From: Promethearchaeota archaeon | GTDB lineage: Archaea; Asgardarchaeota; Lokiarchaeia; Sigyniarchaeales; SOKP01 | Length of the DNA stretch: 64,000 bases | NCBI GenBank assembly: GCA_016839555.1 | Contig: JAEOUA010000011.1 | Span: forward strand, 247,905-311,904 | Direction: 5' to 3' | Shown here: in pieces, positions 1,239-39,738 of the stretch | Layout of the letters: every line of letters starts with the position of its first letter | Position numbering within the stretch: position 1 is the first letter of the stretch | Translations under genes and position numbers: made by a program | Notes under the pieces: model-generated | What the model was told of the DNA's origin: nothing | Database searches by the model: none | What the model saw: only the letters and a program-made list of their open reading frames with translations

Positions 1239-1268
1239 AAGGTTTATCTGTTTAAAATTAGATAGTAG

Positions 1269-1781: not shown

Positions 1782-1822
1782 ACTTTTTTTAAATTGCTTA
1801 TATTAAATAAGGATTTTATAAT

Positions 1823-6305: not shown

Positions 6306-7164
6306 ATTTATTTCTATTCTCTTTTAATTTTTAATATATATTTATTATATAAATCTATATCAGAGATATTAATAAATGTTTAAAATTATTGCTTAGAAAG
6401 AAATATAAATTATAGAGAGAATTTTAAAAATGTATAGAAAATATTCAGATTTAAGGCATTTATTTTTATAAATATACTTAAATGAATATTTCTAAGAAGG
6501 AAGATTCTGAAAAAAATTATTTATTTTTTTTTAACTAAAATTATCTTCATTCTTCACGGATTAATCAATTCTTTAATTCCTGTATTAGAATCCTTTTAGA
6601 TAAATCATATACTCATAGTTGCAACAAACACGGTAATATCATTATTCTTTAGCCAAATCTATTAACAAATTTTATTTATAAAGATATTGTGAGAACATGA
6701 AATTAAAATAAAATAGGAAGCTTTTTTATCTCTATTTTAAAGATATAATTTCAAAATTGAAATTTAATATTAGAAGGAAATAATCTTATTCTAGTTCTTT
6801 TTTAAGAAGCTTAATATAATTTTTTTTTAACGATGTTATTTTACTATCTAAATCTTTTGGTTTTATAAAGTTTCTATAATCTATAAATACTTTTTTGCAT
6901 TGTGATATAAAGTGATAGGCATCCAGCTCATTAGTATTTTTCTGATTTTTCTTAATTGTTTTATATTCACTCTGAGGTGTCATTTTATTAACTTTACCTG
7001 AAACTCTATTGGACATAGTTAGATTGAAAATCTCTTCATTAAAAAATCATAGAAGGCTGATGATTTACTATGATCACATAAAATAAATTTGTTTTGAGAT
7101 AGAAAATATAAGGAAGAAAATCGTAATGTTTTGAAGTTCTATTAAAAAAAGAGTGAAAGGTTTA

Positions 7165-7401
7165 TTATTTTCGTTTTAATGACAAATTTTTTAGAGCTTC
7201 AATTACTTCTGGCGTAAATAAGGTTCCAACGAGAATAACAGACAAAAATATTAGAATTAAAGTTAATACTATATTCATCCCAAAAATTATTATTAAAATA
7301 ATATCCAAAACAAGTAGTATTATCAAACTTATAGGTAAAATTTGGTATAATAATTCTTTTCTCTCTGCCTTAGTTTCATTTTCAGTTTCTTCAACGCTCA
7401 T
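7165..7401 (-). CDS. small membrane protein
   Basis: Two hydrophobic helices in 78 aa. Confidence 0.6.
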   Translation of the reverse strand: MSVEETENETKAERKELLYQILPISLIILLVLDIILIIIFGMNIVLTLILIFLSVILVGTLFTPEVIEALKNLSLKRK

Positions 7402-7534
7402 TTTTTAAACCTATTTTACTATAAAATTATTAATTAATTTAGATTATTCATTTCTTCATTTAAATTTTGTTGATTATAGAAATTTCAAAAACTAATTTGA
7501 TTTATATATGAAGAGTTGACTTAAATTGAATAAT

Positions 7535-23358: not shown

Positions 23359-23985
23359 TTAATCCTTAGATTTGAGCTTTTCTAATTCTTTTTCTAATTC
23401 GTCGATTTTCTCATCTGAGGCAACACTTGGAAGTGAACTTGATACTTCAGCACCAATCTCGGCATCTATTTCTCCTAAAAGTTCTTTTACATCATCATCA
23501 GATACTGCAGTGTCCATCGTTATGTTATCAGTAGCATCAGCAGTGATTTCTTGGGTCACTTCGAAATCTTGAATATCAAGATCGATGCTTGACATTAACT
23601 CTGTAATTTGCGGGATGGAAAGGTTTGCCTTTAACGCTGAAACTGAATTTGCAATAGTTTGCACGATTTTTGCTACATCATGGACAGCATCTGCCTGCTC
23701 CATTTTAAAAACGAGACCTTCGAGGTTGGTTCGAAAAGTGTCAATTGCACGTGCCTGTTTTTTAGTTTGTAAATAATTTCTGGCGTTAAATTTTGCACCA
23801 TTCATATCCCCTTGTTTTCGAAGGTTTACTGCTTTATCACGTGCTTGCTTGGCGCTCATTTCTAATTTTTTGGATTGTCGCATTAATCTTTTATTAAAAA
23901 CTCGTAATTTGATTGCTGCAGATCGAACAGAATTATCAGTTTTTCCACCTGTGAGCCAATCACTTACTCGTTTTAGAAAACCCAT
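23359..23985 (-). CDS. ESCRT-III subunit, Vps2/24/46 (CHMP1-3) class
   Basis: Snf7-type basic helical hairpin, N-terminal amphipathic helix MGFLKRVSDWL, acidic C-half, MIM1-like DELEKELEKLK; divergent from vps4. Confidence 0.88.
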   Translation of the reverse strand: MGFLKRVSDWLTGGKTDNSVRSAAIKLRVFNKRLMRQSKKLEMSAKQARDKAVNLRKQGDMNGAKFNARNYLQTKKQARAIDTFRTNLEGLVFKMEQADAVHDVAKIVQTIANSVSALKANLSIPQITELMSSIDLDIQDFEVTQEITADATDNITMDTAVSDDDVKELLGEIDAEIGAEVSSSLPSVASDEKIDELEKELEKLKSKD

Positions 23986-24245: not shown

Positions 24246-25445
24246 ATGTCCAGTTTTGATTCAAAATTATATCAGTTCGCGGTGAAAGAAGCAAACGAAG
24301 CCGTTGCATATGATGGAAAAGGGCAATATCGGCAAGCCATAAACAAATATCAAAGAGCTGCTGAAAGTTTAATCCAATTTATTAAATATAATAACAATCA
24401 AATTATGATTAAAAAATGTAAAAAACAAATAGAAGAATATCTCGACCGTGCAAAACTTTTAAAATCTCATCTCAATGGGGCAAGATCAATAAAATCAGCT
24501 ACTGATAGAGATATCAAAGAAGCTGGTGGAGAAGGAGAAATATCCGACGAGGAACGAGAAATATTGGATATGATTAGTGGAACTATCATAACAGAATCGC
24601 CCAACGTGAAATGGTCTGATATTGCGGGACTAAAAAGTAGTAAACAAGTTCTAAGGGAAGCCATCGTATTACCCATTATGAAACCCAAATTATTTACAGG
24701 AGCACGAAAGCCTTGGTCGGGAGTTTTATTATTTGGACCACCGGGATGTGGAAAAACATTATTAGCTAAAGCAGCCGCCTCAGAATGTAAGGCGACTTTC
24801 TTTAGTGCATCTTCTGCAGATTTATTAAGTAAATGGCTAGGAGAAAGTGAAAAATTAGTTAGCGCTTTATTTAAAATCGGTCGTTTAAGAGCTCCGAGTT
24901 TAATTTTTATTGATGAAATAGATTCTCTTGCCACAAAAAGAGGAGAAGGCTCGGAAAGTGGAGGTGAACGTAGAGTAAAAACCCAACTTCTTAGTGAAAT
25001 TCAAGGAATGAAAACCACAGAGAATAAACCTATGTTAGTTTTGGGCGCTACAAATCGTCCATGGGACCTTGATAATGCGATGCTCAGCAGATTTCAGAAA
25101 AAAGTATATGTTCCTTTACCGGATCTTGAAGCAAGAGCGGAGATCTTTAAGATTCACACCAAGGGAGTAAACATGGCTTTAGATGATGAAGACTTTATTG
25201 AATTAGGTGTTAGATCAGAGAGATATTCTGGGAGAGATATTTCCAATGTCTGTAGAGAGGTCATAATGATGCCCATTAGAGAATTAGATGCTTCAGGGAT
25301 GTTAGAACATCCTGAGCAAGAGGTTAAGGTTAGAGATATTACACTTGATGATTTTAAAAAAACTCTAAAAAAAGTGAAACCTATGATGGACAACAAAGAT
25401 TTGGCAAGATACGAAGATTGGGCACAAAAATACGGGGAATATTAA
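24246..25445 (+). CDS. vps4: Vps4 AAA+ ATPase
   Basis: N-terminal MIT domain, GPPGCGKT, KWLGESEK pore loop, IFIDEID, ATNRPWDLD, Vps4 C-terminal helix. Confidence 0.95.
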   Translation: MSSFDSKLYQFAVKEANEAVAYDGKGQYRQAINKYQRAAESLIQFIKYNNNQIMIKKCKKQIEEYLDRAKLLKSHLNGARSIKSATDRDIKEAGGEGEISDEEREILDMISGTIITESPNVKWSDIAGLKSSKQVLREAIVLPIMKPKLFTGARKPWSGVLLFGPPGCGKTLLAKAAASECKATFFSASSADLLSKWLGESEKLVSALFKIGRLRAPSLIFIDEIDSLATKRGEGSESGGERRVKTQLLSEIQGMKTTENKPMLVLGATNRPWDLDNAMLSRFQKKVYVPLPDLEARAEIFKIHTKGVNMALDDEDFIELGVRSERYSGRDISNVCREVIMMPIRELDASGMLEHPEQEVKVRDITLDDFKKTLKKVKPMMDNKDLARYEDWAQKYGEY

Positions 25446-25471: not shown

Positions 25472-26392
25472 ATGGAAAAACAAAGAGATGAAGTAAAAGA
25501 AATTTCAAAAGAGCTTAAAGAAAAAGCTGATAAAGAATTAGAAAGACTCAGAAGAGAGTTATATCGTTTAAGAAAACTAAAAGAGCAAAAAGAAAAAGAA
25601 AAAAAAAAAAAGAAAAAGAAAACCGCTACCGAAGAATTAACTAAAGAATCTGCTTCATCTGTTTCCGAAAAACCAAAGAATATTAGCGGAGTAAAAGAAA
25701 TTGAAGAATCATTTGAAGAGATTGATTCTTTATTAAGTCAAGAATTAGAAAAAGAGAATCACAAAACTTATGAAAAAAATGCGAATTATATTGAAACCCA
25801 ATTACAAAAATTAGAACAAGAAATAATTGGAGAAACGGGTCTCATTGAAGAGGAACTTTCGCCTTATGAAAAATTATTAGATGAATATCCTTGGTTGGAA
25901 CAACCTCGATATGAATATATGTTTCATATCCCGAATAAAACAAAAAATCCAAATGATTTCGAATCCTGGGTCAATGAATGGAGTAAAATTTTATTTGATT
26001 ATGCCAAATATGCGATTTTACATATCCTTTATTTGAGGCAGTTATACACAGAAGCCCCATTTTCTAAATTTGAGAATCGAAAGCAAGCAATCAAGGAAAT
26101 TAGTAATTGGTTGGTAAAGCAAGATTTAGCAAGGTGGCTTTCAAAGAAAAAGGAAAAATTAAGGGTGTATTGGAAAACTTTGGATTTAATGGCCGAAGAA
26201 ATTTATGACTGGGCTTATGATAGCGGGAAATTAGAGCCAATACTTATTTATGAAATTAGGGAAGCCAAAAAGGAATTTAATGGTCTTCCAAAAGACGAAT
26301 TTGAAAAAATATTTGAAAAACTTTCAGAACAAAATAGAGCAGAAATAATAAAAATAAAAGATCGGATTGCTTTAAAGATCCTTCTCGAATAA
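25472..26392 (+). CDS. vps25: ESCRT-II Vps25-like protein with N-terminal coiled coil
   Basis: W..EWSKILFDY and VYWKTLD..AEEIYDWA winged-helix motifs; follows vps4. Confidence 0.8.
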   Translation: MEKQRDEVKEISKELKEKADKELERLRRELYRLRKLKEQKEKEKKKKKKKTATEELTKESASSVSEKPKNISGVKEIEESFEEIDSLLSQELEKENHKTYEKNANYIETQLQKLEQEIIGETGLIEEELSPYEKLLDEYPWLEQPRYEYMFHIPNKTKNPNDFESWVNEWSKILFDYAKYAILHILYLRQLYTEAPFSKFENRKQAIKEISNWLVKQDLARWLSKKKEKLRVYWKTLDLMAEEIYDWAYDSGKLEPILIYEIREAKKEFNGLPKDEFEKIFEKLSEQNRAEIIKIKDRIALKILLE

Positions 26393-26713
26393 TGGAAATT
26401 TCTTTTCCATAAACTTAAGAATTTTTTCCCTTTTATAATGATTACAGAATGCTGAATTACAATCAAAGGGGTGATGACATTCGTTAATATGCCCGAATTC
26501 GCAGAACATACACGAAAATATTTCATCGTCAAATAATTCTCTTTCATCTCTGGGACAAAAGGCGTGACCATATTGAAGGGTGATCATCCTTCTGAGATTT
26601 CTGAGTTTTATTTTATCGTAAGCGGATTTCTCTTTCTTCTCTTCTAAGCGTTTGACTGCTTTAATGATGGTTATAATTGCTTCTGCGTGGTGATTGCTTA
26701 TTTTTTGAGCCAT
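26372..26713 (-). CDS. Cys/His-rich small protein overlapping attL
   Basis: CMFCEFGHINECHHPFDCNSAFCNHY; stop codon lies at the edge of the repeat. Confidence 0.75.
   Translation of the reverse strand: MAQKISNHHAEAIITIIKAVKRLEEKKEKSAYDKIKLRNLRRMITLQYGHAFCPRDERELFDDEIFSCMFCEFGHINECHHPFDCNSAFCNHYKREKILKFMEKKFPLFEKDL
26373..26392 (+). repeat. attL-like repeat TAAAGATCCTTCTCGAATAA (end of vps25)
   Basis: 17/20 identical to 39719-39738. Confidence 0.85.
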
Positions 26714-26716
26714 TGT

Positions 26717-26911
26717 TTAGATCAGTCCCCGTTCTTTGAGTGGATTTTTACGGTGGCATTCATAACATTCGTCATAATCGGGTTCAATATCTCCGTAGCC
26801 ACAATAAGGGCAGTGCAACACTCCATCCATTACTGCGGTTTTCAACATATCGAGGAGTCCTTTTTGCGTTATTTCTCTTTTTACAAAATTTTTATTCATT
26901 TTTGGTTTCAT
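26717..26911 (-). CDS. small Zn-finger protein (virus/plasmid-like)
   Basis: DGVLHCPYCG..IEPD...CYEC...NPL...GLI. Confidence 0.7.
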   Translation of the reverse strand: MKPKMNKNFVKREITQKGLLDMLKTAVMDGVLHCPYCGYGDIEPDYDECYECHRKNPLKERGLI

Positions 26912-26963
26912 CTCTTTTTTGATTTTTAAGGTTTTTTATTGGTTTATTTGGTGTTTGAAAAAA

Positions 26964-27245
26964 TTAGAATTTGCCCCATAAATGCCGATATTTATCGTTT
27001 TCGTCTTTACTGCGGGGGGCGTATTTTTCGGCGTGTTTCTGGGCGATGTAAAATATTGAGTTTCTGGTGTGTCGTGCCTTAAAAAAGCATTCTCTATCGC
27101 AAAACGTGAAACCAAAGGGATCGATGAAAAAAGATTTCTCTATCTGGATCTGCTTTGAACAATAACAGCAATAATAAGTTTTTGTTGTGTGTTTGTTTCG
27201 GGGTAAGTAAAATAAGTTAATCTTTTCTAACTTTTCGTCAAACAT
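26964..27245 (-). CDS. TRASH/FCS-like Zn-finger protein
   Basis: CCYCSKQI...FCDRECF. Confidence 0.65.
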   Translation of the reverse strand: MFDEKLEKINLFYLPRNKHTTKTYYCCYCSKQIQIEKSFFIDPFGFTFCDRECFFKARHTRNSIFYIAQKHAEKYAPRSKDENDKYRHLWGKF

Positions 27246-27739
27246 TATTACATAAATGAGGCAATCCTTTTTAAATCATAATAGGGTAATGATTTAGAAT
27301 AATTGAACTTAATCTCATAATCTATGAGCATTTCAAATATTGTTTTATAATAAAATGGAGTTTTCTACTCATAGATTAGAATAAAGAATATTTTGAATAA
27401 AATCTCTCCTGCTATATACAATTTCTTAATCATTCTCATCAATAGAATTGGAGAAGATACAAAATAAATAAAAAACTAGTAGTTCTTTTTCAGGTAAAAG
27501 CTAAAAATTTCAATCTTCATCCGATCCTTACCAAAAAATATATTTAAATTTCTTTACCTGAGCAAAATAAAAATCTCTCGTTAATATCCCAAAAAAGAAT
27601 TTTGGTGTTTTAATTCTGTGTGGTAAAATTCAATAATATCTTAACAATGTTAATATTGATCTTAACTTATAAAAAAAAAGTAAAAATAGGAAAAAACAAA
27701 AAAATGTAAGTATAAATAGGAAATTTTTGGATCTTTAAC

Positions 27740-27964
27740 CTAATTTCCCAAAAAAATACGATTCAATTCCACCTCGAAATTAATACCATTTAATCTCTTA
27801 AGCATTGTTTTAAGTGTTTTAAATTTTTTAATTGCTTCTGCTGTTGTTTTACTGCTTGTGTCACATAAATGAAAAATAGTTTGGTCGTCATCTGGGTGTT
27901 CTATTAAATATTTCGTTAAGGTAAAAATTTTTTCTATTAGCGAATTTATTTGATCTTTATTCAT
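27740..27964 (-). CDS. hypothetical protein
   Basis: 74-aa ORF co-oriented with the small-gene array. Confidence 0.55.
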   Translation of the reverse strand: MNKDQINSLIEKIFTLTKYLIEHPDDDQTIFHLCDTSSKTTAEAIKKFKTLKTMLKRLNGINFEVELNRIFLGN

Positions 27965-28179
27965 TTTATTTGATTAGATTTTTGTTTATTATGTATAAAC
28001 ATACAATATTCATTTAAATAATGAAATAGCGTGGTGGATTATTATAAATATATCCGATCTTTAACTTTATAGATATTTCAAATCGTCTTGTGAGGGGAAT
28101 AGAATCCATTTTTTAATAGTTTAGTAAAATAAAGAAAAAAAAAATAGAAAAAAAAAGAAAATATAAGAGTTTAAAATGG

Positions 28180-28524
28180 TTAGAATTTGCTATATATCAC
28201 CTTTCCCGTTAATCTGTCAAAAATCTTTCTGCATGTTGGACAAATAAGATATTCTCCGTTGTCAAATAACTTATTCTTGCATAAACAATCAAATTTGGTT
28301 TCCTTAAGGTTTGATAAATCCATCTTCATTTTCTTTTCTCCGATTATGGTATTTATAATCTCTTTAAACTTTGGAATCCATTTTAGCAATAAGATATAGA
28401 TGGATTCTTCTAAAGTTTGCTTTTCTAAGGGTTCTAAATTGTAGATAAAGGTATATCTCTCTTCTAAAAATTCTATTATTTCATCTGTCATAATGTCTAA
28501 GGTTTTATTAACCAGTGCGTTCAT
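28180..28524 (-). CDS. hypothetical protein with C-terminal Zn ribbon
   Basis: CLC...CPTC; start overlaps the upstream ORF. Confidence 0.6.
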   Translation of the reverse strand: MNALVNKTLDIMTDEIIEFLEERYTFIYNLEPLEKQTLEESIYILLLKWIPKFKEIINTIIGEKKMKMDLSNLKETKFDCLCKNKLFDNGEYLICPTCRKIFDRLTGKVIYSKF

Positions 28525-28831
28525 CTCCTTTTTGCTGTGAAATTTGGGGTTGATGAGAAAAGATATTCGGTTTATGGTTTTGGGCGATCCATTTTCCGAT
28601 ATCTTTAAAAAAATGGGTAATATCTCCGTTGTGAAAGTCGATTTTGACTAATTGCATTCTAATCTGCTGATGGATGGCGGGATCACAATGTTTAATATAC
28701 TCAATGATGACCCCTAAAGGCATATAATGATATGTGTTATCATCGTCAATAAACTCGAAAGCAGTTGCTTCTGCGTCTATCTCCTTTTCTTCCAATAGTC
28801 GTTCTAACCATTTGTTAAATTGAAGGCTCAT
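28508..28831 (-). CDS. virus/plasmid-type hypothetical protein
   Basis: LEEKEID...MPLGVIIEYIK...LVKIDFHNGDITHFFK resembles, from recall, a small-protein family of mobile elements. Confidence 0.7.
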   Translation of the reverse strand: MSLQFNKWLERLLEEKEIDAEATAFEFIDDDNTYHYMPLGVIIEYIKHCDPAIHQQIRMQLVKIDFHNGDITHFFKDIGKWIAQNHKPNIFSHQPQISQQKGDERTG

Positions 28832-29091
28832 ATAATATAAATAGAGTTCTGGCTTATTAATGTGAATAGACTAATGATTTAGTTATTTTCATCTGGATTT
28901 TTCTATTTTTGGAATAATTCGATTATAAGATATACATTGAAAGAAAAAAAATGAAAAAATTTTGAAATTCAATATTCTGTAATAGAAAATTTCACATTAA
29001 AGGAATTATCTTTATAATAATTGAGGAGAATTGAGAATTTTTATTCTCATTTATTCTCATATTTTCAGCAAAAAGGAAAAAAAAGAGTGAA

Positions 29092-29316
29092 TTAAAATAT
29101 AGGTATTTTAGATTTAGGAAATTTTATAGAAGGGTTATCCATTCTGAAAGTTATATAATCATCTGGGTTACGAGTCAATGCGTTCTCAAAATCATAATTC
29201 TTGATATTCTCGATCAGTTCTTTTGTTAAGAGTTCTTTGAGTTGTTCATTAGAATACTGAGAAGTGTTAATACCTAAATCTTGAGTGCTTAGTTTAACTT
29301 TAAAGATTGCTTCCAT
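29092..29316 (-). CDS. hypothetical protein
   Basis: 74-aa ORF with AAGGAAG upstream. Confidence 0.55.
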   Translation of the reverse strand: MEAIFKVKLSTQDLGINTSQYSNEQLKELLTKELIENIKNYDFENALTRNPDDYITFRMDNPSIKFPKSKIPIF

Positions 29317-29681
29317 TTTGGCTTCCTTTTATTTTTATATGAGGTATTAATAATAGTTTTTATTGAATTTATTTAAACAAAAATCCTTTAAATACTAAAA
29401 TAGAGCATTAGATTATTGTAAAAATTAAAAAAAGAATTAAGTAAAAAAAGAAAAGAAAATTTCTGTTTCTAATATATATTTGGTCTCCCATCTTGCCATA
29501 GTCTTATAGTAAGAATAGGAATGATATATATCTTGTTTCTGGATCTCATAAACAGAATCGCTTAAAATAATTCTTATACCTTTATTCACCATTAAGAATT
29601 GAATTTTTTTTATTCTATTGCTGAGATTTTATATTCCTTATTTTAAAGAAAGTTTCATAAAACAGAGCAAAATCTTTTTTC

Positions 29682-30071
29682 TTATTGACTGATATAGTTT
29701 TGTAGGTTATAACTCTTCATAGCTCTCTTGATAGTTTGTATCAATGATTTGATTGTAAATGGTTTCTCTAAAAAAGAAAAAGCTCCGCAGGCGAAAGCCT
29801 CTCTCTTTATTCTTTTATCTCCTGTAATAAAAATAATTTTTATATTAGGATCTATTTGTAAAATTTCTTTTGAAGCTTCTATGCCGTTCTTTTTCGGTAA
29901 ATGATGATCCATCAAAATCACTTGAGGTTTACTTTTGAATGCCTTAAACATTGAAATTGCTTCTTCTCCATCCTCTGCTATCCTTACTACTTCAAAACCG
30001 TTTAATCTTAAAACTTTTTTATAAAAGGAATTTAAAGATTTGTCATCTTCGACAATAAATATTTTATCCAA
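29682..30071 (-). CDS. single-domain CheY-like response regulator
   Basis: IVEDD, ILMDHHLPKKNG, FITG, LEKPF. Confidence 0.9.
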   Translation of the reverse strand: MDKIFIVEDDKSLNSFYKKVLRLNGFEVVRIAEDGEEAISMFKAFKSKPQVILMDHHLPKKNGIEASKEILQIDPNIKIIFITGDKRIKREAFACGAFSFLEKPFTIKSLIQTIKRAMKSYNLQNYISQ

Positions 30072-30188
30072 TTTAATCCCTTAACCTAATTTTATACCCA
30101 ATAATTGTGTGAATTCTAATCAATCTCATATAAATTACAGATAGTTCGGTATTTAAATATTTCGATCCCATATAGAATGTAGATAAAA

Positions 30189-30401
30189 ATGAATGGGGAG
30201 ATAGTTAAATATAGATTTTATAAGGATACATCACAAAGTCTTATTACAATTCCAAAAGCAATTGCTAGGTCATTAAATTGGAATGATAAAGATGATATTC
30301 ATATGGTTATAACAACTATTGAAAATAAATTGGGTGTGTTTCTATTTAAAGACTCAGAGAAAAAGTCCGAGAAAAAGTACCTAAACCAAAAATTTCTCTA
30401 G
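30189..30401 (+). CDS. AbrB/SpoVT/MazE-like DNA-binding protein
   Basis: SLITIPKAIARSLNWNDKDDI. Confidence 0.7.
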   Translation: MNGEIVKYRFYKDTSQSLITIPKAIARSLNWNDKDDIHMVITTIENKLGVFLFKDSEKKSEKKYLNQKFL

Positions 30402-30799
30402 GAAAAATAAAGATAAAAAGAGAAAAAAAATAGATGTCCTCGCTTAATATCATAACTTATAAGAAAAGGTTAGAATAAGATCTACTCTATAGAGTTCTAT
30501 AAAGTAATTCACTAAAAGACAAAAATCCAGGGATTTAAGCAAGGTTATCTATTTTTTTAACAAGACCTTACTTTTTTACTGATTCGTCGAATAATTATAA
30601 ATATGATTCCTATTTAAATTTAAGTATAAAAAAGCCATATATTCATAAAAATTAAGATTTCCTATAAGATAAATTATTTTAATGTAAATGTTTTCAAGAA
30701 TCTCTGTGGAGTTGAAGCAGGAAAGAGATTGACACCATTATTTTAGATATATGAATCATTATATTAATTTCCATAAAATAGATGGGGTTATATGAATCT

Positions 30800-31066
30800 T
30801 TATACTTTCCTAATGTCCACTTCAATGACATCTCCTGCGTTCAGATCTAATTTTTCAGCAACATAATATCGGATGGATACTCCTTTCGAACTCCCTACCC
30901 AACGTACTTGGCGTGTCATAGTATGCGAGGGCTTATTTTCTACAGCCTTAAAGATTTCTATTTCTACGAGATCGCCGACATCGAGTTCTAATCCGTCAAT
31001 AATATGTGATTGGATGATAAAACCCAATGTTCTGCCACTTTCAATAAGTAATACCGTATCTTTCAT
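30800..31066 (-). CDS. tandem (two-domain) AbrB-like DNA-binding protein
   Basis: Internal duplication GRTLGFII...LELDVGDLVEIEI / GSSKGVSI...LDLNAGDVIEVDI. Confidence 0.75.
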   Translation of the reverse strand: MKDTVLLIESGRTLGFIIQSHIIDGLELDVGDLVEIEIFKAVENKPSHTMTRQVRWVGSSKGVSIRYYVAEKLDLNAGDVIEVDIRKV

Positions 31067-31266
31067 GGGAATCTACATGTAAAAATTATTATTTTTTCAA
31101 AGTTCTACTTGTAATACTACCTAAAATCTCTACTATTATTTAAGATTTCACTTAATCATTTAATATTTTGATTAAATGTATTCAACTCCTTCCTTAGTTT
31201 CACTATAATAATCAGAGCTTTCATTATATCTTATTTATTTATCACAATTAATTCACCATATTAGAT

Positions 31267-31306
31267 TATGATATCATCATAAAGATTTAAATATGATCTT
31301 ATCATA
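31267..31306. promoter_or_regulatory. two TATGAT-N3-ATCATA palindromic operators around a TATA box (TTTAAATA, 31286-31293)
   Basis: Palindromes at 31267-31281 and 31292-31306 in the divergent intergenic region. Confidence 0.6.
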
Positions 31307-31364
31307 ATATTATCTTGTATTATCTCCATAAAATATCAGGTAAATAAAAAATAAAAACATTAGA

Positions 31365-31718
31365 ATGAGTACTTCAGACCATCCATCAAAGCTAACACCT
31401 AAACCTAAGAAAATATCCTTAATTTATTCACAATTTATCGAAATTCTCAGTGAGAGCTTGGAAGATAATTTTGATGTGTGGTTTGTTTGGGTTACTAAAC
31501 TCCTTATACAGCTTTTACACTCAGATACACTAAAAGGGGAGTATCTGACCAACTTTTTACGGATTTTTACTTCCTTAACACATAGGAAAAAATTGATTTC
31601 TCCAATTCCAGAAGGGAAAGACATTCACACATTATCAGCTCAAAAAAAAGCTCACATAAAAGAAATTCTTGAGGATTTAATATTTTTATCTGAATATAAA
31701 GACAAAGAAGAGGTATAA
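31365..31718 (+). CDS. hypothetical helical protein
   Basis: 117-aa ORF, first gene of a + strand operon. Confidence 0.6.
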   Translation: MSTSDHPSKLTPKPKKISLIYSQFIEILSESLEDNFDVWFVWVTKLLIQLLHSDTLKGEYLTNFLRIFTSLTHRKKLISPIPEGKDIHTLSAQKKAHIKEILEDLIFLSEYKDKEEV

Positions 31719-31776
31719 TAATATTCAAGATCCTCACCATAAAGTTAGGCAGGAAATTAATAGGATACGAAAGAGA

Positions 31777-32310
31777 TTGGATTTACCTCTCTCGATTAAC
31801 GAGCAGATCTATATTATATTTCAGGAAATCGAGAAATGTGCTATTCAGACAGATCCTCTGAAACTCATACCGCTCTTATTCCTTCTCTATTTAAACACAA
31901 ATAATTACTTTCTAAGCTTGGATAAAATTGCCAAAATATCCTATATTTCCGTAAATGAGTGCTTATCCTTTACTGAGGATCTCCGAAGGTTTGAATTTGA
32001 CGAAAAACGATGCACGTTTCAAAATATTAAAACATTTAACCTTACGTTTTCGAAATTCCGCAAAAAATATGGAGTTTGTCCCGTATGTAATACTAAATTA
32101 GATGAGGAATATTTGAGGCTCTACTATTTTGATAGATTGTATGACCGTCAGAAACTTAAGGAAAATCTCAACAATAGGTTGAGCCGGGAAAAATCCTTTC
32201 GATATGTATATGAGAGACGGATCACCCTCAAAATTCCCTGTATTATCTGCTTTCTGGAGTTATTACAGCAATTAAATTATAAAAATGTACCCATTGGAGT
32301 AAATCAATAA
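31777..32310 (+). CDS. hypothetical Zn-binding protein
   Basis: CPVC...CIIC. Confidence 0.6.
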   Translation: MDLPLSINEQIYIIFQEIEKCAIQTDPLKLIPLLFLLYLNTNNYFLSLDKIAKISYISVNECLSFTEDLRRFEFDEKRCTFQNIKTFNLTFSKFRKKYGVCPVCNTKLDEEYLRLYYFDRLYDRQKLKENLNNRLSREKSFRYVYERRITLKIPCIICFLELLQQLNYKNVPIGVNQ

Positions 32311-32336
32311 AATAATAAAATAGGAGTGTATATAAT

Positions 32337-33641
32337 ATGATTGTTCAAGATTGTTTGTATAATAATAATAGTAATAATTTAGATGTATGTGACCTTAGCT
32401 GTGAGTTATGTCATTCCTCTGAAATTAGAGAAACCCAACAAGGGTATGTGTGTGCCGAGTGCGGGTGCGTTTTAGATCTTCCCATTTTAAAATATCACGT
32501 GCCCTATACCCAAAAAAAGATCCATTATGAAGTATCTGTGGGAAATACCTTTCTTGGATTACAAAAAGAACGAAGATCCAATCGACACTCTCCCAAACTG
32601 AAGCGATTACACAAACTTCAGTGTTCCCAATCATATCAAGATATGGTATATCATGATACAGAGATCGAAATTTGCCGGATTCTGGCAGGATTAGATCTCC
32701 CCCACACCTTTAAAGATCCTATCTTCAAAACCTTTAAAGAACTTTGGGGTAATTATTCACAGAGAAGTCGGTTTCAAAGTATTGAGAAATTAATACCTGT
32801 TCTTATCTATTATTTCTGCAAAAAGCAATACATATCCATAAATGAACATGAACTATTGGAAATCGCTAAGGTGAATAGAAAACAATATATTTATTATAAA
32901 TTGAAATTTCTTGCCCCTCCCTCTGCATATAAGAATGCTAATCGAAAAAAGCTTATAAAATCAAAATTGTTTAGGCTGGCAGTTGAGTTAGGTTTGGGAA
33001 TGGATTTCTACCACGATGCAGTAAAGTTGTTAAATAAACTATATAAAGAGATTTGTTGCACGAAAGAGAGTGTGATCGCGGGACTTATCTCATCGATTGT
33101 AGTATTATGTCGTTATAGAGAGGAAATAACTGTCAATTCCATCTGTAATTACTTCAATATAGCAATGAGTACCATTCAATCGCGGGTTAAACGGCATTTT
33201 ATAGAAAAATTTAAGGTCGTCGGATTCGAAAGCCTGGTAAAATCGGCTCATATCATCAAAACGACTATTTATAAGTTAGGGATCTTCGAAGAACCGTCCG
33301 GAGAACAAATCAATGAGCCATTCAAAGAGCTTTATGTTACCATAGAAACGAATGCTACTGAAGAATCAGAAGAAGGAGACTTCTTTTCCGAAACTCTTGA
33401 TACCCCTAAAATAATTCAAGTGAAAGCAATCTATAGAAACTTACGCAAGAGATTTCCCAGACTCCAGAGATCCTATAATTGCTTCCTCTTTATTCTTCAA
33501 AATCGATTTGATTTACACCCCATCTTCATCTCTCTATTATTGCCAACCAATTCGATTATGCATATTCTCAAGCAAAATGGAAATAAAGCCATACTGAAAA
33601 GAATGACCAAATATTTATACCCTTCAAAAGGACCTCCATAA
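32337..33641 (+). CDS. divergent TFIIB/TFB-like protein
   Basis: N-terminal Zn ribbon CELC...YVCAECGCVL, RLHKLQ linker, two cyclin-like repeats (EICRILAGLDLP..., ITVNSICNYFNIAMSTIQSRVK). Confidence 0.75.
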   Translation: MIVQDCLYNNNSNNLDVCDLSCELCHSSEIRETQQGYVCAECGCVLDLPILKYHVPYTQKKIHYEVSVGNTFLGLQKERRSNRHSPKLKRLHKLQCSQSYQDMVYHDTEIEICRILAGLDLPHTFKDPIFKTFKELWGNYSQRSRFQSIEKLIPVLIYYFCKKQYISINEHELLEIAKVNRKQYIYYKLKFLAPPSAYKNANRKKLIKSKLFRLAVELGLGMDFYHDAVKLLNKLYKEICCTKESVIAGLISSIVVLCRYREEITVNSICNYFNIAMSTIQSRVKRHFIEKFKVVGFESLVKSAHIIKTTIYKLGIFEEPSGEQINEPFKELYVTIETNATEESEEGDFFSETLDTPKIIQVKAIYRNLRKRFPRLQRSYNCFLFILQNRFDLHPIFISLLLPTNSIMHILKQNGNKAILKRMTKYLYPSKGPP

Positions 33642-33660
33642 TACACTCATTTATCACAGT

Positions 33661-33685
33661 AATATTCCTTCATTGAAGGAGTATT
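33661..33685 (+). terminator. hairpin downstream of the TFB-like gene
   Basis: 11-bp stem AATATTCCTTC/GAAGGAGTATT (one G-T pair), 20 nt after the stop. Confidence 0.35.
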
Positions 33686-34170
33686 CATCAAGATAAGAAT
33701 TTCACCGAGATTTCTGGATTTTTGTCTAATAATCTTTTGTTTGATTGACGCAAAGAAAAGATTCGCTCTCATTCCTTTTTTGATCATCTCGGATGATCCT
33801 TCTTATCTTTATCTTTTTCTCTTTTTCTTTTAAAAAATGATTTTATGTATCACTTATTTCTCTAATATAAGTCATTAAAGTGAAAAATTTTCCTGTTGGA
33901 TTAGGATTTCTACTTATATTGTATTTTATTTCTTTTATCAGTGGTACAAATTTAAGTCTATAATTGTCAAGGGTTGGATTAAATTTACATTTCTTGTATT
34001 AAAAATTAAATGTCTTTTAATAAAATCGGTATAAACATTTATAAGTCAATTTAATTATACTATTAATAATAGCAGTCGATTTATTTCTATTTATTTAAAT
34101 TTTCTTAGAATTTGAGGGTTGAAAGATACATCGAAATGCAGGAGCTATACAAAGAAAATATAATTAAAAA

Positions 34171-34940
34171 ATGAAGATACCAAAACAGCTAAAAAAAAAT
34201 AGAAATTTTAAATTTAACCAGAAAAATACTAAAACATATTTGAGATTGCTTAAAAGTGAGTTCAAAACTCATTTTAAAGAACTTATGGTTAGATTTAATG
34301 ATAAAAGAAATATTAGGTTTATTTCGAAAAATGGCAAAAGTATTTTCCCATTTGATGAAAATCAAGCTTATAATGAGTATGATTTCAGAGTATTTTGGCA
34401 TAAGAATCAGATTGAAATAGTATATAATGATGAAATAATCGAAAAAAATCTTCTTAGAAAGTATAAACTCACCTTTTTGAAAAATCTATTTAGTCAAATA
34501 GCACATCACGAATATGCTCATACAAGACAATTCGAATCAATGTTCTATAAATATTCTCAATCTATTTATAATGAGATTTTCAATAAAGATTTAGAGATTA
34601 TTTCATCTGATGATATAAAGAGATGTGATATAAAATATAGATCTATTACACAAAAAATACAAAAATCTCTTAAAAATATTCATATACTATATATTGACCA
34701 TACTTTTATTGAGTTTTGGGCGAATTCAATTATATATGATGAAATAGACTCTAATCGTCCCGCAGAAAGGCTGATAGAAAGAAGAGACTTAATGGTTGAT
34801 AAAGAATGTTTATACCCTGATCATATTTTAAATCCTGAAATAAGATATGGAAAGAGAATTTTAGACCTTTTGGAATTATCCCAAGAACATTTTATCTTTA
34901 AAGACTGGGAACCATTAGAAAATCTTTTCAAAAGATTGAA
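34171..34940 (+). pseudogene. 3'-truncated zinc metallopeptidase (HExxH)
   Basis: HHEYAH at about 34504-34521 and downstream EFWAN; after ~34940 the 343-aa ORF reads out of frame into GC-richer DNA. Confidence 0.65.
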
Positions 34941-35012
34941 TCGATTCGTACGTTTCAACTCATCCCCTCGGATGCGCCCCCTCTTAAGTCTAACATTACT
35001 TCTATTACTATT

Positions 35013-38000
35013 ATGTCATTCCAATTATTCGGCGAGTTCTCTTTCGATTCTTCAATCACATTATATCCCAACGAGTTCACTTACGACTCTTCGACGGGGA
35101 AAGTATCCATCAAACCCGCTGCTTTCGAACAGATTAGGGCGAGAACCAGCAATATGGAGTGGTCGAGCAATTCTCACTCTGAAGCGAATCTTCTCTATAT
35201 AATATCCCTTGAATCCGTGCGCTCCATTTATAGTACCGAGGACGATCTCTCGTTGTCGCAGGCAAAGCAAATAATGCTCATGCAAGGCATTCAGATGGGC
35301 ATCGTCGATTATATGAACGAGTATGTCCAAGGATTTGCGAAGGCTCAGCTGGATTATCAGACCGGGTATAATTTAATCATAGCATCGGTTAAAATTGTGG
35401 CGACCATTATCGCGATAATTGCGACTAAAGGTGCCCTGGGCGGAATTGAAGCGCTTAAGCAAAGTTCAGCAGCTAGCGCTTCGGATGCGTCAGGAAGTGC
35501 TTCGGGTTCGGCTGCTGGTGGTTCGAGTTCGGCAGCTGCCGGCACAGGTGAAGCATATATTGGTCTTGATGGTATCCTCTATAATGAATTCGGGGTAGCT
35601 GTCGATGTTGCCGGCGGAATTGCCGTAGACTACGCTACCGAAACCGCCAAAGAAGTCATCAACACCTATTTGGAACAAAGCTTGGTGCAAATGTCAAATA
35701 GACTCGTACAATCCCTTTCTATTCAACAAATTTTGAAAATTGTGGTTCCATCTGTCGGTCAGTTGTCCGTTCAAGGGCTTTCAGAAGTTTCCCTTACGCA
35801 AGTAATTACACAATCCATTGAGCTATCCATCGGACTCGACGGCAGCATCGTCGGACTCATCGGCGGCTATTTACTGACCGATATATTCGGCGAGATAAGC
35901 AACCCGCAGCTCTATGTTCTCTCCCAGGAACTCGCCTCCATGCAAGAACAGCTCGCCTCTCCTACTAAATCGGCTCGGCTTACCCCGCAATTGGCACAAG
36001 TCTTCTTTGAGCTTCGCCCCTATGGATTTGCGGGCGCCTCGGCACAAGAATTGCAGAAATTAACTCCAAGTGCGGTTGAAGTGGTTAATCAGGATGAAAA
36101 AGAGCGTCAGATGGCAGAAAATGCTCAAGACTATGCCGAGTTCATAGCGTGGTTGGAGATGGTGTTTGGCCTTATCAATATGACTATATGGGAATGGTAT
36201 GAATTTTTAAATCGACCCTGGGATTATTCCATTTTCGATGAGATACGGGAGTTTAGACTGTGGGTAGAGGGGGGAATTTCCGATAATTATATTACGAACG
36301 AAGAGATTAAGAATAATCGCATTTATCAGAAATATCTGGAACTTTACCGTAGGAATAAGGAAGAATTTGCCCGAAGATTGGCTCGATACGATGAATGGAC
36401 AAAAGAGGCGGAAGTTTACTCCTTACGGAAGGCAATGAAAAATTATACAAAGCAAACCAGCAGATCCCCTTGTTTTCAATCAACAAATAAATTTAAAGGT
36501 AAATTTATTACATGGTTTCAAGAACATTATAACATACCATTCCCCCTTCACGATGAAGAGATACGGGAAAAGTTTTACAACATATATCCCGCCTTCACTC
36601 GAATTCTTTTAGAGCATTTCGAAATCTATGACTCTTTTGAGAATGTTATGGACGACCCCCTTGATGTAGTGGAATGGGTAGAAAAATTAACGGGCAGGTT
36701 TAAGAAATACAACAATTCTGACTTAAAGCCCGCCCTATATAATGAACCTCGTGGTGGTCGTGATCTCTATAATATTGAAGGGGCGCCCTCTAGTACATCT
36801 TTTTATCCTTATGTTAAGATCTTCATTCGGGAAGCGTTCCGATTTGCGTATGAAAATGGAATGCGAAGGAGATTAACCCCACAAGAAGTGTCTCTTATCC
36901 GTTCCTTGGCTCTGGATAAAACAATAACTACCTATCAAAAGATCGTCCGTGCCGTTCAAAAGGCCTCCAAGCCCGACGAGGGAAAGACCCTTGAATTAGT
37001 CACAACACCCCGAGATTTCTTAAATTTCATGCTTCAAGCGGCAAATAATCCTGATTTACACCCTTCGCATGTTCGTGTGATAATTCGTTGGGTCGAGGGA
37101 GCGCAAGAGTATTCTCCACAAATTCGTAGAATTTATTTAAATCCTCACCGTAAATTGGACGGGTGGTATAAATCTACGGCTTTAACAGCAAAAAATATTA
37201 GAGAGATGGTAGAGCAATATGGATTTGAAATAGTATACATGACCGACGAGCAGATAAACAATGAGTTGAATAGAGTACGGAACGATCCGAAGAGGGGTGT
37301 TAATAACATTAGGTTAACCGTTCGATGTACAAGATGCCACACGGTTCAAACCAAATCGCTTTATAGTATACAGACATCTGCGCATTGTAGCTATTGTATG
37401 CCAAAGATTTATACCAATGAAGCGTATGCCCTCAAAGTATTAACCGAAATACTCTCGAAGCAGTCCAGCTCTTTCGACAGCTTTCTCAGGACCGACCTTA
37501 AAGGAAACAAACTCCCCAAACTCCAAGCAACCCCTCTCTGGAGAAATCAGCATGTATATATCAAGGATCTGATCCACCCCCTTAAGAAAGGCGCGTGGAT
37601 TCTCAATAAACATGGACAATGGGAATGGAATAAAAACTATTACCAATATGAAACGGATACGGATTACATAAAATTCTTCTGGAGCGTACATGTAGATGGT
37701 GCAATATTTGTAAAGGTAAAACTAAAGAACTCCGACCAATTTGTCAAACAAGCAGACGGCACCGACATGGTATTCAAATTTCTATTAGAACGCCAGGGAG
37801 AGCAGCATCAAACCTCATGGAAGGGATTTATAGCGTGGCTCCGATTACATGGGGAAAACACCATCGCGGATATCGTAGAGCCCATTGGCAACATTGAAGA
37901 TACACTTATCGTTCGGAGGTTAACACCTAAACAAAAGGACATACTTGATAAAGAGCATGAAAAATGGCTCAAGCAACTGCAACGAGATCGGGATAAAGTT

Positions 38001-38285
38001 AAGCTGTTTGAGTATCACCAGAAAGACGGGTTCTATCTGCTGGTGATGGACCATACCGTGAAGCCCGACCAAATGCTTCAGTTCCTCTGCGCTCAGATTA
38101 CCGAGATCGTTAATTTACATTTGATTGAGACCATAGAGAATATTCGGGGCGAAGATCTTGTATCTTTTGAGGAGATACGACAGATCCTAGAGGATACCCT
38201 GATGCCTTACGGCAAATATATTCCTTGGTTAAAGCAGAGAAGAGTATGGGGAGATATAACGGATTATCTTAATAAAACGGGATAA
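35013..38285 (+). CDS. 5'-truncated large protein: TM/Gly-Ser region, conserved central block, Zn ribbon, Vsr/DUF559-like endonuclease
   Basis: Frame open from 34902; TM helix LIIASVKIVATIIAIIAT; CTRC...CSYC; HVDG...LERQGEQH...RDRDK...GFYLLVM. Confidence 0.75.
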   Translation: MSFQLFGEFSFDSSITLYPNEFTYDSSTGKVSIKPAAFEQIRARTSNMEWSSNSHSEANLLYIISLESVRSIYSTEDDLSLSQAKQIMLMQGIQMGIVDYMNEYVQGFAKAQLDYQTGYNLIIASVKIVATIIAIIATKGALGGIEALKQSSAASASDASGSASGSAAGGSSSAAAGTGEAYIGLDGILYNEFGVAVDVAGGIAVDYATETAKEVINTYLEQSLVQMSNRLVQSLSIQQILKIVVPSVGQLSVQGLSEVSLTQVITQSIELSIGLDGSIVGLIGGYLLTDIFGEISNPQLYVLSQELASMQEQLASPTKSARLTPQLAQVFFELRPYGFAGASAQELQKLTPSAVEVVNQDEKERQMAENAQDYAEFIAWLEMVFGLINMTIWEWYEFLNRPWDYSIFDEIREFRLWVEGGISDNYITNEEIKNNRIYQKYLELYRRNKEEFARRLARYDEWTKEAEVYSLRKAMKNYTKQTSRSPCFQSTNKFKGKFITWFQEHYNIPFPLHDEEIREKFYNIYPAFTRILLEHFEIYDSFENVMDDPLDVVEWVEKLTGRFKKYNNSDLKPALYNEPRGGRDLYNIEGAPSSTSFYPYVKIFIREAFRFAYENGMRRRLTPQEVSLIRSLALDKTITTYQKIVRAVQKASKPDEGKTLELVTTPRDFLNFMLQAANNPDLHPSHVRVIIRWVEGAQEYSPQIRRIYLNPHRKLDGWYKSTALTAKNIREMVEQYGFEIVYMTDEQINNELNRVRNDPKRGVNNIRLTVRCTRCHTVQTKSLYSIQTSAHCSYCMPKIYTNEAYALKVLTEILSKQSSSFDSFLRTDLKGNKLPKLQATPLWRNQHVYIKDLIHPLKKGAWILNKHGQWEWNKNYYQYETDTDYIKFFWSVHVDGAIFVKVKLKNSDQFVKQADGTDMVFKFLLERQGEQHQTSWKGFIAWLRLHGENTIADIVEPIGNIEDTLIVRRLTPKQKDILDKEHEKWLKQLQRDRDKVKLFEYHQKDGFYLLVMDHTVKPDQMLQFLCAQITEIVNLHLIETIENIRGEDLVSFEEIRQILEDTLMPYGKYIPWLKQRRVWGDITDYLNKTG

Positions 38286-38474
38286 ACTCTGTGGATTTTT
38301 TCTCGTTTACTTTTTATATTATTTTTGCAAAGAATATAATACGATCTAAAAGAACGAAATGATAATGAAAGATAAAAGAAAAAAATAAATATGAAGGTTG
38401 TTGTTATTTATATAATTACCAGCGCACCATTACAGTTTTATCAGTTTAAACCACTAAAAAAAGATTAATATAAA

Positions 38475-39467
38475 ATGGTTGTCGTATTTTATTGGGTTCA
38501 AAGCGAAGAAGAGCGGCTTGCCTTTTACGAATATTATTGGAACCCTCAAACGTATTTTTCTCATCATAATTCCATGATTTTGTTCGAACCCATTACGCTA
38601 GATGATGGTAAGATTTTTGGGGAGAAAGACATACCCTCCGTGGTGCTGGAGTTTTCCGCGGGGTGGGATACAATTAAAGATATGATCAAAAAAAACATCG
38701 TGGTCGAAGAGCGTGTACTTTTATTCGATGACTTGAAGGATGAGGAGAGATATAATGAATTTATGATAAATTTAACGCAAAACCACAATGCATATAAAGG
38801 GTTTGATGCTGGTTCTTACGATATGATAAGATATCTCCATCGTCTTAACTATCGTTATATCGACGGCTCGATTCCTTCCCATGATTTAATAGAGTTGGAA
38901 AACTGGCTTATCTATTTACCCTCGAAGACGCTTCACGACGCAATCTTGGACGCCCTTTTTGAGGAGAACAAGCTTCAAAACTCATTTAGTTACCTATTCA
39001 TAAGGGATATATTGGAAACGAAAGATGGTTGCACTTTCGGTAAGGAAAACAAGCATACCTTGTTTATACACATCTTTTCCACCTTTCATAAGAACGCGGT
39101 TTACGAATTAATCGAAAAGGGCATCATAGAGAAACGACTGGCAATTCAACAGCGACACATCAAGGATTCTATGTTTCAAGATGCGCGAGATCGCGATTTA
39201 CGTAATATGACGCTTTTTTTGGTACTTCTAGACAAGGTAAGATTTAAGTATTATTTTTCCAAAAAACCTTATCGATTTGAAGACGGCTCCCGCCTAACAC
39301 TGGACAACTCCAACTTGTTTCAGAGAAAATTGGATTGGTGGGCGTCAAGGATGATAAAAGAAGAAGACTACTATTGTCCCGCGTGCAAGACAAAAGTTGA
39401 GCAGCGAACTATAAACTTTCGTGAGAAGGGGGAATTCTGTAATCTCTGTTGGGCTAAATTAACTTAA
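38475..39467 (+). CDS. hypothetical protein with C-terminal Zn ribbon; candidate immunity protein
   Basis: Directly downstream of and co-oriented with the nuclease ORF; similar raised GC; CPAC...CNLC. Confidence 0.65.
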   Translation: MVVVFYWVQSEEERLAFYEYYWNPQTYFSHHNSMILFEPITLDDGKIFGEKDIPSVVLEFSAGWDTIKDMIKKNIVVEERVLLFDDLKDEERYNEFMINLTQNHNAYKGFDAGSYDMIRYLHRLNYRYIDGSIPSHDLIELENWLIYLPSKTLHDAILDALFEENKLQNSFSYLFIRDILETKDGCTFGKENKHTLFIHIFSTFHKNAVYELIEKGIIEKRLAIQQRHIKDSMFQDARDRDLRNMTLFLVLLDKVRFKYYFSKKPYRFEDGSRLTLDNSNLFQRKLDWWASRMIKEEDYYCPACKTKVEQRTINFREKGEFCNLCWAKLT

Positions 39468-39718
39468 AACTCATTTAAAAATGATTTTTTTTATTACTCA
39501 TACCTATTAGCTTGAAACTCTCAATTCTAAATTTTAATATTTTATCTTATATAAATTTACTTTCAGATCATCTAAATGATATTACTATTCTTTTTGATCC
39601 CAAAGGTTAAAATTTCAAAAAATACCGAAGAAATATTTAACAAAGGAGACAGAATTAACTCCACAACAAATAAATGAAATAGCAATAGAATTGCTACTGA
39701 AATGGGGAAAAAAAAAAA

Positions 39719-39738
39719 TAAAGATACTTCTTGAATAG
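39719..39738 (+). repeat. attR-like repeat TAAAGATACTTCTTGAATAG (displaced 3' end of vps25)
   Basis: Encodes KILLE-stop, same as the vps25 end; 97 bp from the vps22/36 stop. Confidence 0.85.

Follow-up and report, generated by a model that had tools for sequence, protein, structure and literature searches.

A composite mobile island in the 3' end of an Asgard archaeal vps25 gene supplies the gene with a replacement end

Phage 21 and the element e14 reportedly integrate in the 3' end of the Escherichia coli gene icd, replacing it, by means of a tyrosine integrase and always in the same gene. In fungal mitochondria, mobile open reading frames (mORFs) create 'gene hybrids', as in atp6 of Allomyces macrogynus and in atp6, atp9, cox2 and nad3 of Glomus, where it is the native copy of the gene end that resembles near relatives more, and most differences between the copies are synonymous (PMC3630166). 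Homing endonucleases of the Vsr-like (EDxHD) type exist as well, for example I-Bth0305I, and free-standing genes of this kind occur in 'fractured genes' (PMC3239194, PMC2677866). Among Asgard archaea, the integrated mobile genetic elements (iMGEs) of Atabeyarchaeia carry tyrosine integrases and have short AT-rich attachment (att) motifs of 11 bp (PMC11529989). The locus considered in this study lies in a 64-kb stretch of DNA from a Promethearchaeota archaeon of the Lokiarchaeia (referred to as the window; coordinates without a prefix are window positions), in which the last codons of vps25, an ESCRT-II gene (ESCRT, endosomal sorting complexes required for transport), recur 13,346 bp further on, with an island of other genes between the two copies. 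The genome of the window, G000, has a size of 3.74 Mb in 12 contigs, of which C1, C3, C4, C10, C11 and C12 are named in the following; L-numbers denote fetched contigs or loci of relatives.

The two copies of the 20-bp repeat agree at 17 of 20 bases, and the mismatches (ATC/ATA, CTC/CTT and TAA/TAG) all fall at third-codon positions, both copies encoding K-I-L-L-E-stop. Each copy starts with TAAAGAT (26373-26379 in copy 1), which is followed by CCTTCTCGAATAA (26380-26392) in copy 1 and by ACTTCTTGAATAG in copy 2. The features of the locus that carry the argument, followed by its upstream neighbors, are:

25472..26392, + strand: vps25 (ESCRT-II), a hybrid of a native core and an end supplied by the insert; Pfam PF05871, E 3.8e-11; 306 amino acids
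26373-26392, + strand: repeat copy 1, TAAAGATCCTTCTCGAATAA; last codons and stop of vps25
39719-39738, + strand: repeat copy 2, TAAAGATACTTCTTGAATAG, the displaced native vps25 end, by identity to L046
39836..40561, - strand: vps22/36 (EAP30 family), convergent with vps25; Pfam PF04157; host flank
24246..25445, + strand: Vps4 (MIT, AAA and Vps4_C); Pfam; host flank, upstream of vps25
23359..23985, - strand: ESCRT-III gene (Snf7 family); Pfam PF03357, E 1.6e-16; host flank, upstream of vps25

The expected count of a second match with three or fewer mismatches within the window is 0.07, and a search of the whole genome with the degenerate 20-mer returned matches at the sites of copy 1 and copy 2 only. 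The probability that three random mismatches would all land on the seven third positions is 0.03, and that of at least 10/13 matches past the 7-bp identical block is about 0.0015. On neither side did we find the repeat to extend past its 20 bp. From copy 2 to the stop codon of the convergent EAP30/Vps22-36 gene the distance is 97 bp. The identity of vps25 itself follows from the ESCRT-II domain PF05871 inside the conserved Vps4, Vps25, Vps22/36 gene order.

We surveyed the order by searching 154 genomes with both the Vps25 and the Vps22/36 proteins and comparing the coordinates by hand. Full-length Vps25 homologues were present in 131 of the 154 genomes. The order vps4, vps25, vps22/36 was the same in the loci of eleven relatives, with vps25 and vps22/36 convergent and almost touching, and these two genes are separated by about 121 bp or less in 117 of the other 123 genomes that carry both on one contig; the remaining six have unrelated single-gene inserts of 0.6-1.2 kb and no repeat, and in four genomes the two genes are on separate contigs. 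A gap of 13.4 kb was seen in the window's genome only. The closest view of the empty site is given by L046, a metagenome contig with 85-87% nucleotide identity to both flanks of the window (its Vps4 is 93% identical in amino acid sequence), in which vps25 ends with ...GKIALKILLE-TAG, 101 bp from vps22/36. The alignments of L046 to the window end at 26391, restart at 39719 and run to 42935, their overlap being the repeat. The interval is a lineage-specific insertion, absent from relatives. Two of the marks of an integrative element, flanking direct repeats (17/20) and an empty attB (L046 and 117/123 genomes), are present.

The polarity of the insertion can be read from the same contig. The last 13 bases of vps25 in L046 (ACTTCTTGAATAG) are identical to copy 2 at 13/13 positions and to copy 1 at 10/13, copy 1 departing from L046 at exactly the three variable synonymous sites; its Ile and Leu codons there are the rarer ones of the host (ATC, 0.16 of Ile; CTC, 0.06 of Leu). 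This match identifies copy 2 as the original end of vps25, pushed downstream to 39719-39738, and shows that the working end (26380-26392, perhaps from 26373) was brought by the insert, specifying the same residues in other codons. The island would then extend over 26380-39725, with its entry point within the last 20 bp of vps25, 13-20 bp before the end. The Vps25 C-terminus in the window, ALKILLE*, fits the A[FL]KIxLE* of relatives, and the selection argument holds that only insertions preserving this conserved end would persist. The original prediction, made from the letters of the window alone, had already pointed to the 20-mer recurring after 13,346 bp with three synonymous mismatches and KILLE-stop twice, to the 97 bp that would separate vps25 from vps22/36 once the interval is removed, to an inserted mobile element whose removal would restore a compact ESCRT cluster, and to an element-borne C-terminus keeping Vps25 intact under selection; these points stand, the first two by sequence and statistics, the others by the 117 compact genomes, by the empty site of L046, which it had proposed to look for in relatives, by the L046 comparison that makes copy 2 native, and by the conserved protein end.

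Several further observations concern the vps25 end. Over its last ~80 nucleotides (26313-26392, compared with L046:3800-3881) identity to L046 drops from about 0.9 to 0.77-0.79, and there is a 3-nucleotide (one-codon) indel (KIKD-RIA against KLDNGKIA); a co-conversion tract from a donor was considered here and set aside as suggestive only, like dips occurring elsewhere in the gene. A longer vps25-like stretch left of copy 2 (in-frame peptide ...LTPQQINEIAIELLLKWGKKKIKILLE*) was likewise rejected, with an E of 24 against a hidden Markov model of the Vps25 C-terminus (about rank 31 of 2452 frames) and no match to a DNA profile. As reconstructed, the empty-site join reads ...GATTGCTT-TAAAGATACTTCTTGAATAG-ATATATC and the circle junction ...GGGGAAAAAAAAAAA-TAAAGATCCTTCTCGAATAA-TGGAAA; exact searches for attB (TTGCTTTAAAGATACTTCTTGAATAG) in metagenome contigs and for the attP pattern in viral contigs each gave 0 matches. 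At the other end of the protein, an N-terminal extension of about 130-160 amino acids (window 25472-25900), charged and Lys-rich, precedes the ESCRT-II domain, and its length is kept across genomes of the family (proteins of 294-336 amino acids). The small inserts between vps25 and vps22/36 (L008, which is G012:C91; L002, which is G005:C140; L025, L026, L027 and L028; genomes G005, G012, G022, G049, G046 and G085) contain a flavodoxin-like gene, a 184-amino acid protein, a beta-helix protein and small open reading frames (ORFs). We do not regard them as the same phenomenon, since they are unrelated single genes with no repeat. In G012 the C-terminus of Vps25 is changed to ...GFKAFF*, departing at the codon where the window's repeat starts.

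Turning to the content of the island, its ORFs of at least 50 amino acids were scanned against Pfam and PHROGs. From left to right it contains:

26372..26713, - strand: zinc-finger ORF (113 amino acids), left-end gene of the element family; 86% amino acid identity to L035 over residues 1-93
26393..26434, no strand: junction segment of 42 bp with a TGGAA...TTCCA hairpin, between the replacement end and the start of element homology
26964..27245, - strand: Cys-rich ORF of 93 amino acids (Cys-93), second conserved left-end gene; 72% amino acid identity to L035/L037
27352..34940, no strand: middle block of 7.6 kb, absent from related elements; Pfam and PHROGs matches
28508-28831, - strand: phrog_6004 ORF in the middle block; PHROGs/Pfam scan
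29682-30071, - strand: response-regulator receiver in the middle block; PHROGs/Pfam scan
31365-33641, + strand: three-gene operon, the last gene encoding a TFB-like protein; PHROGs/Pfam scan
34171 to about 34940: HExxH ORF, 3'-truncated, in the middle block
35013..38285, + strand: protein A, 1090 amino acids; 24-44% amino acid identity to A of L035, L047, L049 and L050
38475..39467, + strand: protein B, 330 amino acids, downstream of A; tandem ferredoxin-like domains and a C-terminal zinc ribbon

Judged by homology, the outer genes of the island represent a small, rare family of Lokiarchaeia-type elements that is inserted elsewhere in sister lineages. The zinc-finger and Cys-rich genes lie directly beside A and B in L035-L038 and L049, so that the core element comprises zinc finger, Cys-93, A and B, about 4-5 kb in all; in the window this core is split by 7.6 kb of other genes. 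The element-bearing contigs come from lineages at 72-87% nucleotide identity to G000, which thus provides the corresponding empty sites.

Four insertions outside the window can be compared in this way. In L047 (contig C98 of G005, GCA_008080765.1, SHMU01000098.1, a genome of the same genus as that of the window), a 5.6-kb insert with A (706 amino acids) and B is flanked by ~240-bp repeats of the 3' part of an HTH_20 gene (1050-7480); the left copy completes the HTH_20 (ArsR-like) gene and the right copy is left as a 76-codon fragment. The copies are about 98% identical, their few and mostly synonymous differences lying in the first 30 nucleotides and the last codons, and at these differing edges the right copy is nearer the G000 orthologue. 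The middle 200 nucleotides are identical, which gene conversion between the copies may explain. In L050 (JGI Ga0102944_1003106), a porG-porD-porA-porB operon is interrupted behind about the 12th codon of porA by a 2.2-kb element (L050:2900-5260) with an A of 200 amino acids, comprising the nuclease part only, and B. The site is uninterrupted in G000, where the two flanks align with a 20-bp overlap (C12:109544-109563). What remains of the native porA start (MTESKQKNFVQ) is a stub. The right end of the insert repeats, at 76% identity, the 300 bp that precede porG, a 35-codon ORF and a palindrome included, and this copy is fused to recoded porA codons 1-12 (TTG ACA CAA TCA..., TQSAQKDFLQN) that run into the native gene; the downstream genes thus regain a promoter and a start codon. 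In L035-L038, a 4.2-kb insert with zinc finger, Cys-93, A (499 amino acids) and B lies about 20 bp upstream of the start codon of a helicase gene, at a place where G000 has 58 bp (C11:135740-135799). L049 (JGI Ga0209918_1002826) holds a further copy of the element, with its right junction 6 bp or less from the stop codon of B; its flanks map to two G000 contigs (near 18.1 kb of C3 and near 429.4 kb of C10), which suggests that the element was the site of a rearrangement or that synteny differs. Copies of a gene end accompany three of the five insertions, the window included, each specific to its target: 20 bp at 85% identity in the window, about 35 bp at about 69% in L050 and about 240 bp at about 98% in L047. 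In this company vps25 is one target among several, and the link to ESCRT appears incidental.

We note some details of the ends. Nucleotide homology of the island to L035 and L049 starts at 26435/26436, where the zinc-finger ORF of the window is cut (at 26435) and truncated after about residue 96; its homologues have about 175 amino acids, and those of G005, L035 and L049 possess an additional C-terminal domain. At L035:7000-7020 the TGT (Cys) codon of the window's zinc-finger gene corresponds to an in-frame TGA, the L035 frame running on into a C-terminal domain of the G005 type. Around the Cys-rich ORF nucleotide homology covers 26971-27351. The left ends of the window (26385-26410) and L035 (6716-6740) elements have GAATAATG(N2-5)AATTTCTT in common, and the right ends of the two have AAAAAATAAA(A)G(A)T; with just these two copies, the common motifs may be chance or may mark element termini. 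The 42-bp junction segment was tried as a decayed 3' end of vps22/36 and rejected, resembling one relative at ~64% over 45 nucleotides by eye and giving no nhmmer match.

The island as a whole is a composite mosaic, apparently partly decayed, in which genes are truncated, and not one clean element. Its GC content is 0.25-0.33 over 26.4-34.9 kb as against 0.40-0.47 over 34.94-39.5 kb, and the sharp step near 34940 (from about 0.25 to 0.40-0.47) cuts the HExxH ORF. Besides the ORFs listed above, the middle block contains small zinc-ribbon ORFs and two AbrB-like ORFs, and paralogous blocks exist in G000 at C1:138.6-142.8 kb (77-86% nucleotide identity), C4:211.2-212.1 kb (92%) and C11:18.7 kb. 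The first of these corresponds to window 28996-33835 (C1:138600-142783; a small ORF, an AbrB-like gene and the TFB-like three-gene operon) and adjoins a gene for a 1346-amino acid kinase and an Spt5-NGN-like gene; the second corresponds to the response-regulator and AbrB pair (window 29627-30558, C4:211201-212136). The TFB-operon and response-regulator/AbrB modules seem to be mobile independently. Later rearrangement is evident from the middle block of 7.6 kb, from the GC-rich block with A and B and from the two truncated genes, and the element copy of the window is therefore probably no longer mobile.

Two proteins, A and B, are encoded at the right end. The N-terminal half of A, in which a membrane segment and stretches of low complexity occur, varies and ranges from 0 to about 580 amino acids across homologues; the conserved C-terminal half (encoded by 36744-38285) has a zinc ribbon and a Vsr/DUF559-like motif, VHVD...LERQGEQH...RDxDK, of which H-D...K...ERQGxQH...RD..K is invariant among homologues. 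With residues 224-464, the structural aligner VIA-align gave several Vsr-type folds among its best rows, all of them weak matches: to the RAP domain of FASTKD4 (Z 5.7, root mean square deviation (rmsd) 3.8, 105 amino acids), Vsr (Z 4.8, rmsd 3.3, 104 amino acids), I-Bth0305I (Z 4.4, rmsd 3.8, 85 amino acids) and Bax1 (Z 4.1-4.3), the model of A having a poor pLDDT of 57. On these weak grounds A may be considered a candidate Vsr-like endonuclease. A word-based homologue search with the 1090- and 499-amino acid forms of A returned only the queries themselves. Homologues of B always occur directly downstream of a homologue of A in the relatives' contigs that were fetched; B has seven relatives among 1.84 billion representative proteins, and in full length it is found in 2 of the 154 genomes of the order (G000 and G005). 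Its model (pLDDT 79) shows tandem ferredoxin-like domains. Nothing informative came from fold searches with B: Foldseek found no match below 1e-3 in pdb, the best VIA-align hit (Z 5.6) was a generic ferredoxin-like domain, atlas TM scores stayed below 0.35, and an ESM feature search scored 0.78. Neither A nor B matched a defense system in PADLOC. One smaller contig, L034 (GCA_014730125.1 WJIT01000342.1; 2428 bp with an exact 141-bp terminal overlap, hence a unit of 2287 bp), holds a homologue of B with 74% amino acid identity beside a host-type metallophosphoesterase-like gene that has a 78% homologue in G000 (C12:231459-232259); the contig represents a small circle or else a repeat-flanked insertion that has been collapsed.

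Considering the comparisons as a whole, we lean, with a confidence slightly better than even, toward the view that a composite, partly decayed mobile island entered the end of vps25 by a nuclease-driven insertion of the mORF kind, with a co-transferred gene terminus. The candidate Vsr-like nuclease A, possibly together with B, would cut an intact target gene; repair would then bring in the element plus a gene end derived from its former host; the native end, shifted downstream, would become a dead duplicate, and the target gene would stay functional. What characterizes the mORF hybrids, a foreign in-frame terminus with a native terminus downstream that is closer to relatives, is found at vps25 and also in L047, and in mirrored form in L050.

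Several points weigh against this reading. The insertion of L035-L038 is intergenic and shows no clear gene-end copy. Each of the five known copies of the element has a site of its own, a distribution that transposition or the capture of host fragments would explain as well as homing, and no second genome with the element at vps25 was found among the 123 genomes, where close relatives are thinly sampled, so that repeated homing to one site is only a possibility. The assignment of A as a nuclease is weak, considering its poor model and VIA-align Z values all below 6, and A has no match in Pfam, among PDB sequences or in Foldseek. The A-B pair could be a toxin-immunity or addiction pair merely riding on the island; we note that relative to the polymorphic toxin layout the arrangement is reversed, the nuclease-like C-terminal half being conserved and the N-terminal half variable, with B always after A. 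Finally, a single Campbell-type crossover in TAAAGAT would give the same final structure.

Such a crossover figures in the alternative that survives best, which we consider unlikely though worth keeping in mind: a circular plasmid- or virus-like element that had captured a host gene end and entered by a single homologous or microhomology crossover, with no site-specific enzyme of its own. Gene-end copies varying in length and identity are what one expects from donors at different distances, and in L034, the 2.3-kb contig whose ends overlap by 141 bp, a homologue of B and a host-type gene are joined. However, 20 bases with three mismatches are far too short for ordinary homologous recombination, the crossover would have occurred at the extreme edge of the similar segment in both the window and L050, and the element gives no sign of a replication gene.

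The original prediction had preferred a tyrosine-recombinase integrative element, whose attP with a mimic of the vps25 end recombined in TAAAGAT and which was specialized on vps25. The flanking repeat, made up of a 7-bp identical block and 10/13 similarity beyond it, and the empty site in relatives are compatible with it, Asgard elements with tyrosine integrases and 11-bp AT-rich att motifs are documented (PMC11529989), and an integrase might have been lost in internal rearrangements such as the one marked by the junction near 34940. Against it, no tyrosine or serine recombinase and no transposase was found among the island ORFs with Pfam and PHROGs, a search that a very divergent enzyme could escape. 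PF00589, scanned in six frames over the whole of G000, has no match in the island at E<=1, its sole match in the genome being on another contig (C10:406077-406598), and the compact relatives L035, L047, L049 and L050 are also without a Pfam-recognizable recombinase. No tRNA or Rfam RNA that might serve as a conventional target was found within 25-41 kb. The 7-bp recombinase overlap has its sole basis in the length of the identical block, and the proposed recombinase acting on it was not borne out. The idea of vps25 as a dedicated attB fares no better, related elements having porA, the gene of an HTH regulator and the region before a helicase gene as their sites; the survey of other Lokiarchaeia that had been suggested for inserts with integrases at vps25 turned up no other large insert in 123 genomes. 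Targets that differ, and whose gene-end copies measure about 35 bp in one case and about 240 bp in another, are unlike one fixed attP specificity, and since each target comes with its own matching gene end, a fixed attP with an integrase cannot explain the family. We regard this alternative as decidedly improbable.

Less probable again, and by our estimate very much so, is ordinary gene gain between convergent genes, with the repeat a coincidence or a diverged local duplication. The same intergenic spot does have the unrelated 0.6-1.2-kb inserts in six genomes; nevertheless the repeat is statistically unexpected, and mobility of the island's end genes is seen at other loci. Duplication in situ would further predict that copy 2 is no nearer to L046 than to copy 1; the differences are 0/13 and 3/13, respectively, so that duplication is disfavored. 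An assembly chimera joining the island to the ESCRT locus hardly merits belief: parts of the island do have 77-92% identical paralogues on other contigs, yet these are too diverged to collapse, the genome consists of only 12 contigs, and at both junctions the join lies within the one 20-mer, identically oriented, with vps25 kept in frame.

With nuclease-driven insertion again taken as the preferred reading, mORFs are the closest known analogue. Both have an architecture made up of the gene core, a foreign terminus placed in frame, an element with an endonuclease gene (here a candidate one) and the displaced native terminus, and in mORFs likewise different family members are found in different genes. 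They differ in that mORFs have LAGLIDADG or GIY-YIG nucleases, whereas here an Asgard-type chromosome is invaded and a candidate Vsr-like nuclease with a zinc ribbon is accompanied by a constant partner, B; moreover, the present elements contain multiple genes (4-13 kb), one of them repairs a 5' end together with a promoter, and the role of the nuclease is a prediction. With phage 21 and e14 the locus shares flanking direct repeats and an alternative 3' end with synonymous differences that keeps the gene intact, but those elements use an integrase and a fixed gene, whereas no integrase was found here and targets vary among relatives. The I-Bth0305I type has in common the Vsr-type fold in selfish elements, for which A offers weak fold matches and its D...ExxGxxH...RD..K motif; it differs in that A occurs outside any intron or intein, resembles it in no detectable way at the sequence level, and is much larger, with its variable N-terminal half. 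The Atabeyarchaeia iMGEs are also chromosomal islands with short AT-rich junction repeats, but they carry tyrosine integrases, and in the parts of their description consulted gene-end replacement is not reported (PMC11529989). Already known is that an element-borne end can restore a target gene, both in integrase prophages and with mitochondrial mORFs; new here are the host group, the absence of an integrase, an A-B pair with no family assignment, and repair of a 5' end along with its promoter. Whether all this amounts to a previously undescribed class of integrase-free selfish elements in Lokiarchaeia-type Asgard archaea, in which a Vsr-like nuclease and its partner would invade genes and operons with a donor-derived gene end, and once a promoter, as an archaeal counterpart of mORFs touching vps25, is a proposal that we put forward tentatively, with somewhat less confidence than an even chance would warrant.

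The mobile elements of Asgard archaea are little known, those described so far being viruses, plasmids and integrase-bearing islands. The present locus and its four relatives point to another manner of entering the chromosome, in which a gene is interrupted and a working end from an earlier host is supplied. In this way lineages could exchange short pieces of conserved genes, eukaryotic-signature genes such as vps25 among them, and A with B would be a candidate for a new family of sequence-specific nucleases. Annotation and phylogeny should allow for a possibly foreign origin of the terminal codons in such genes.

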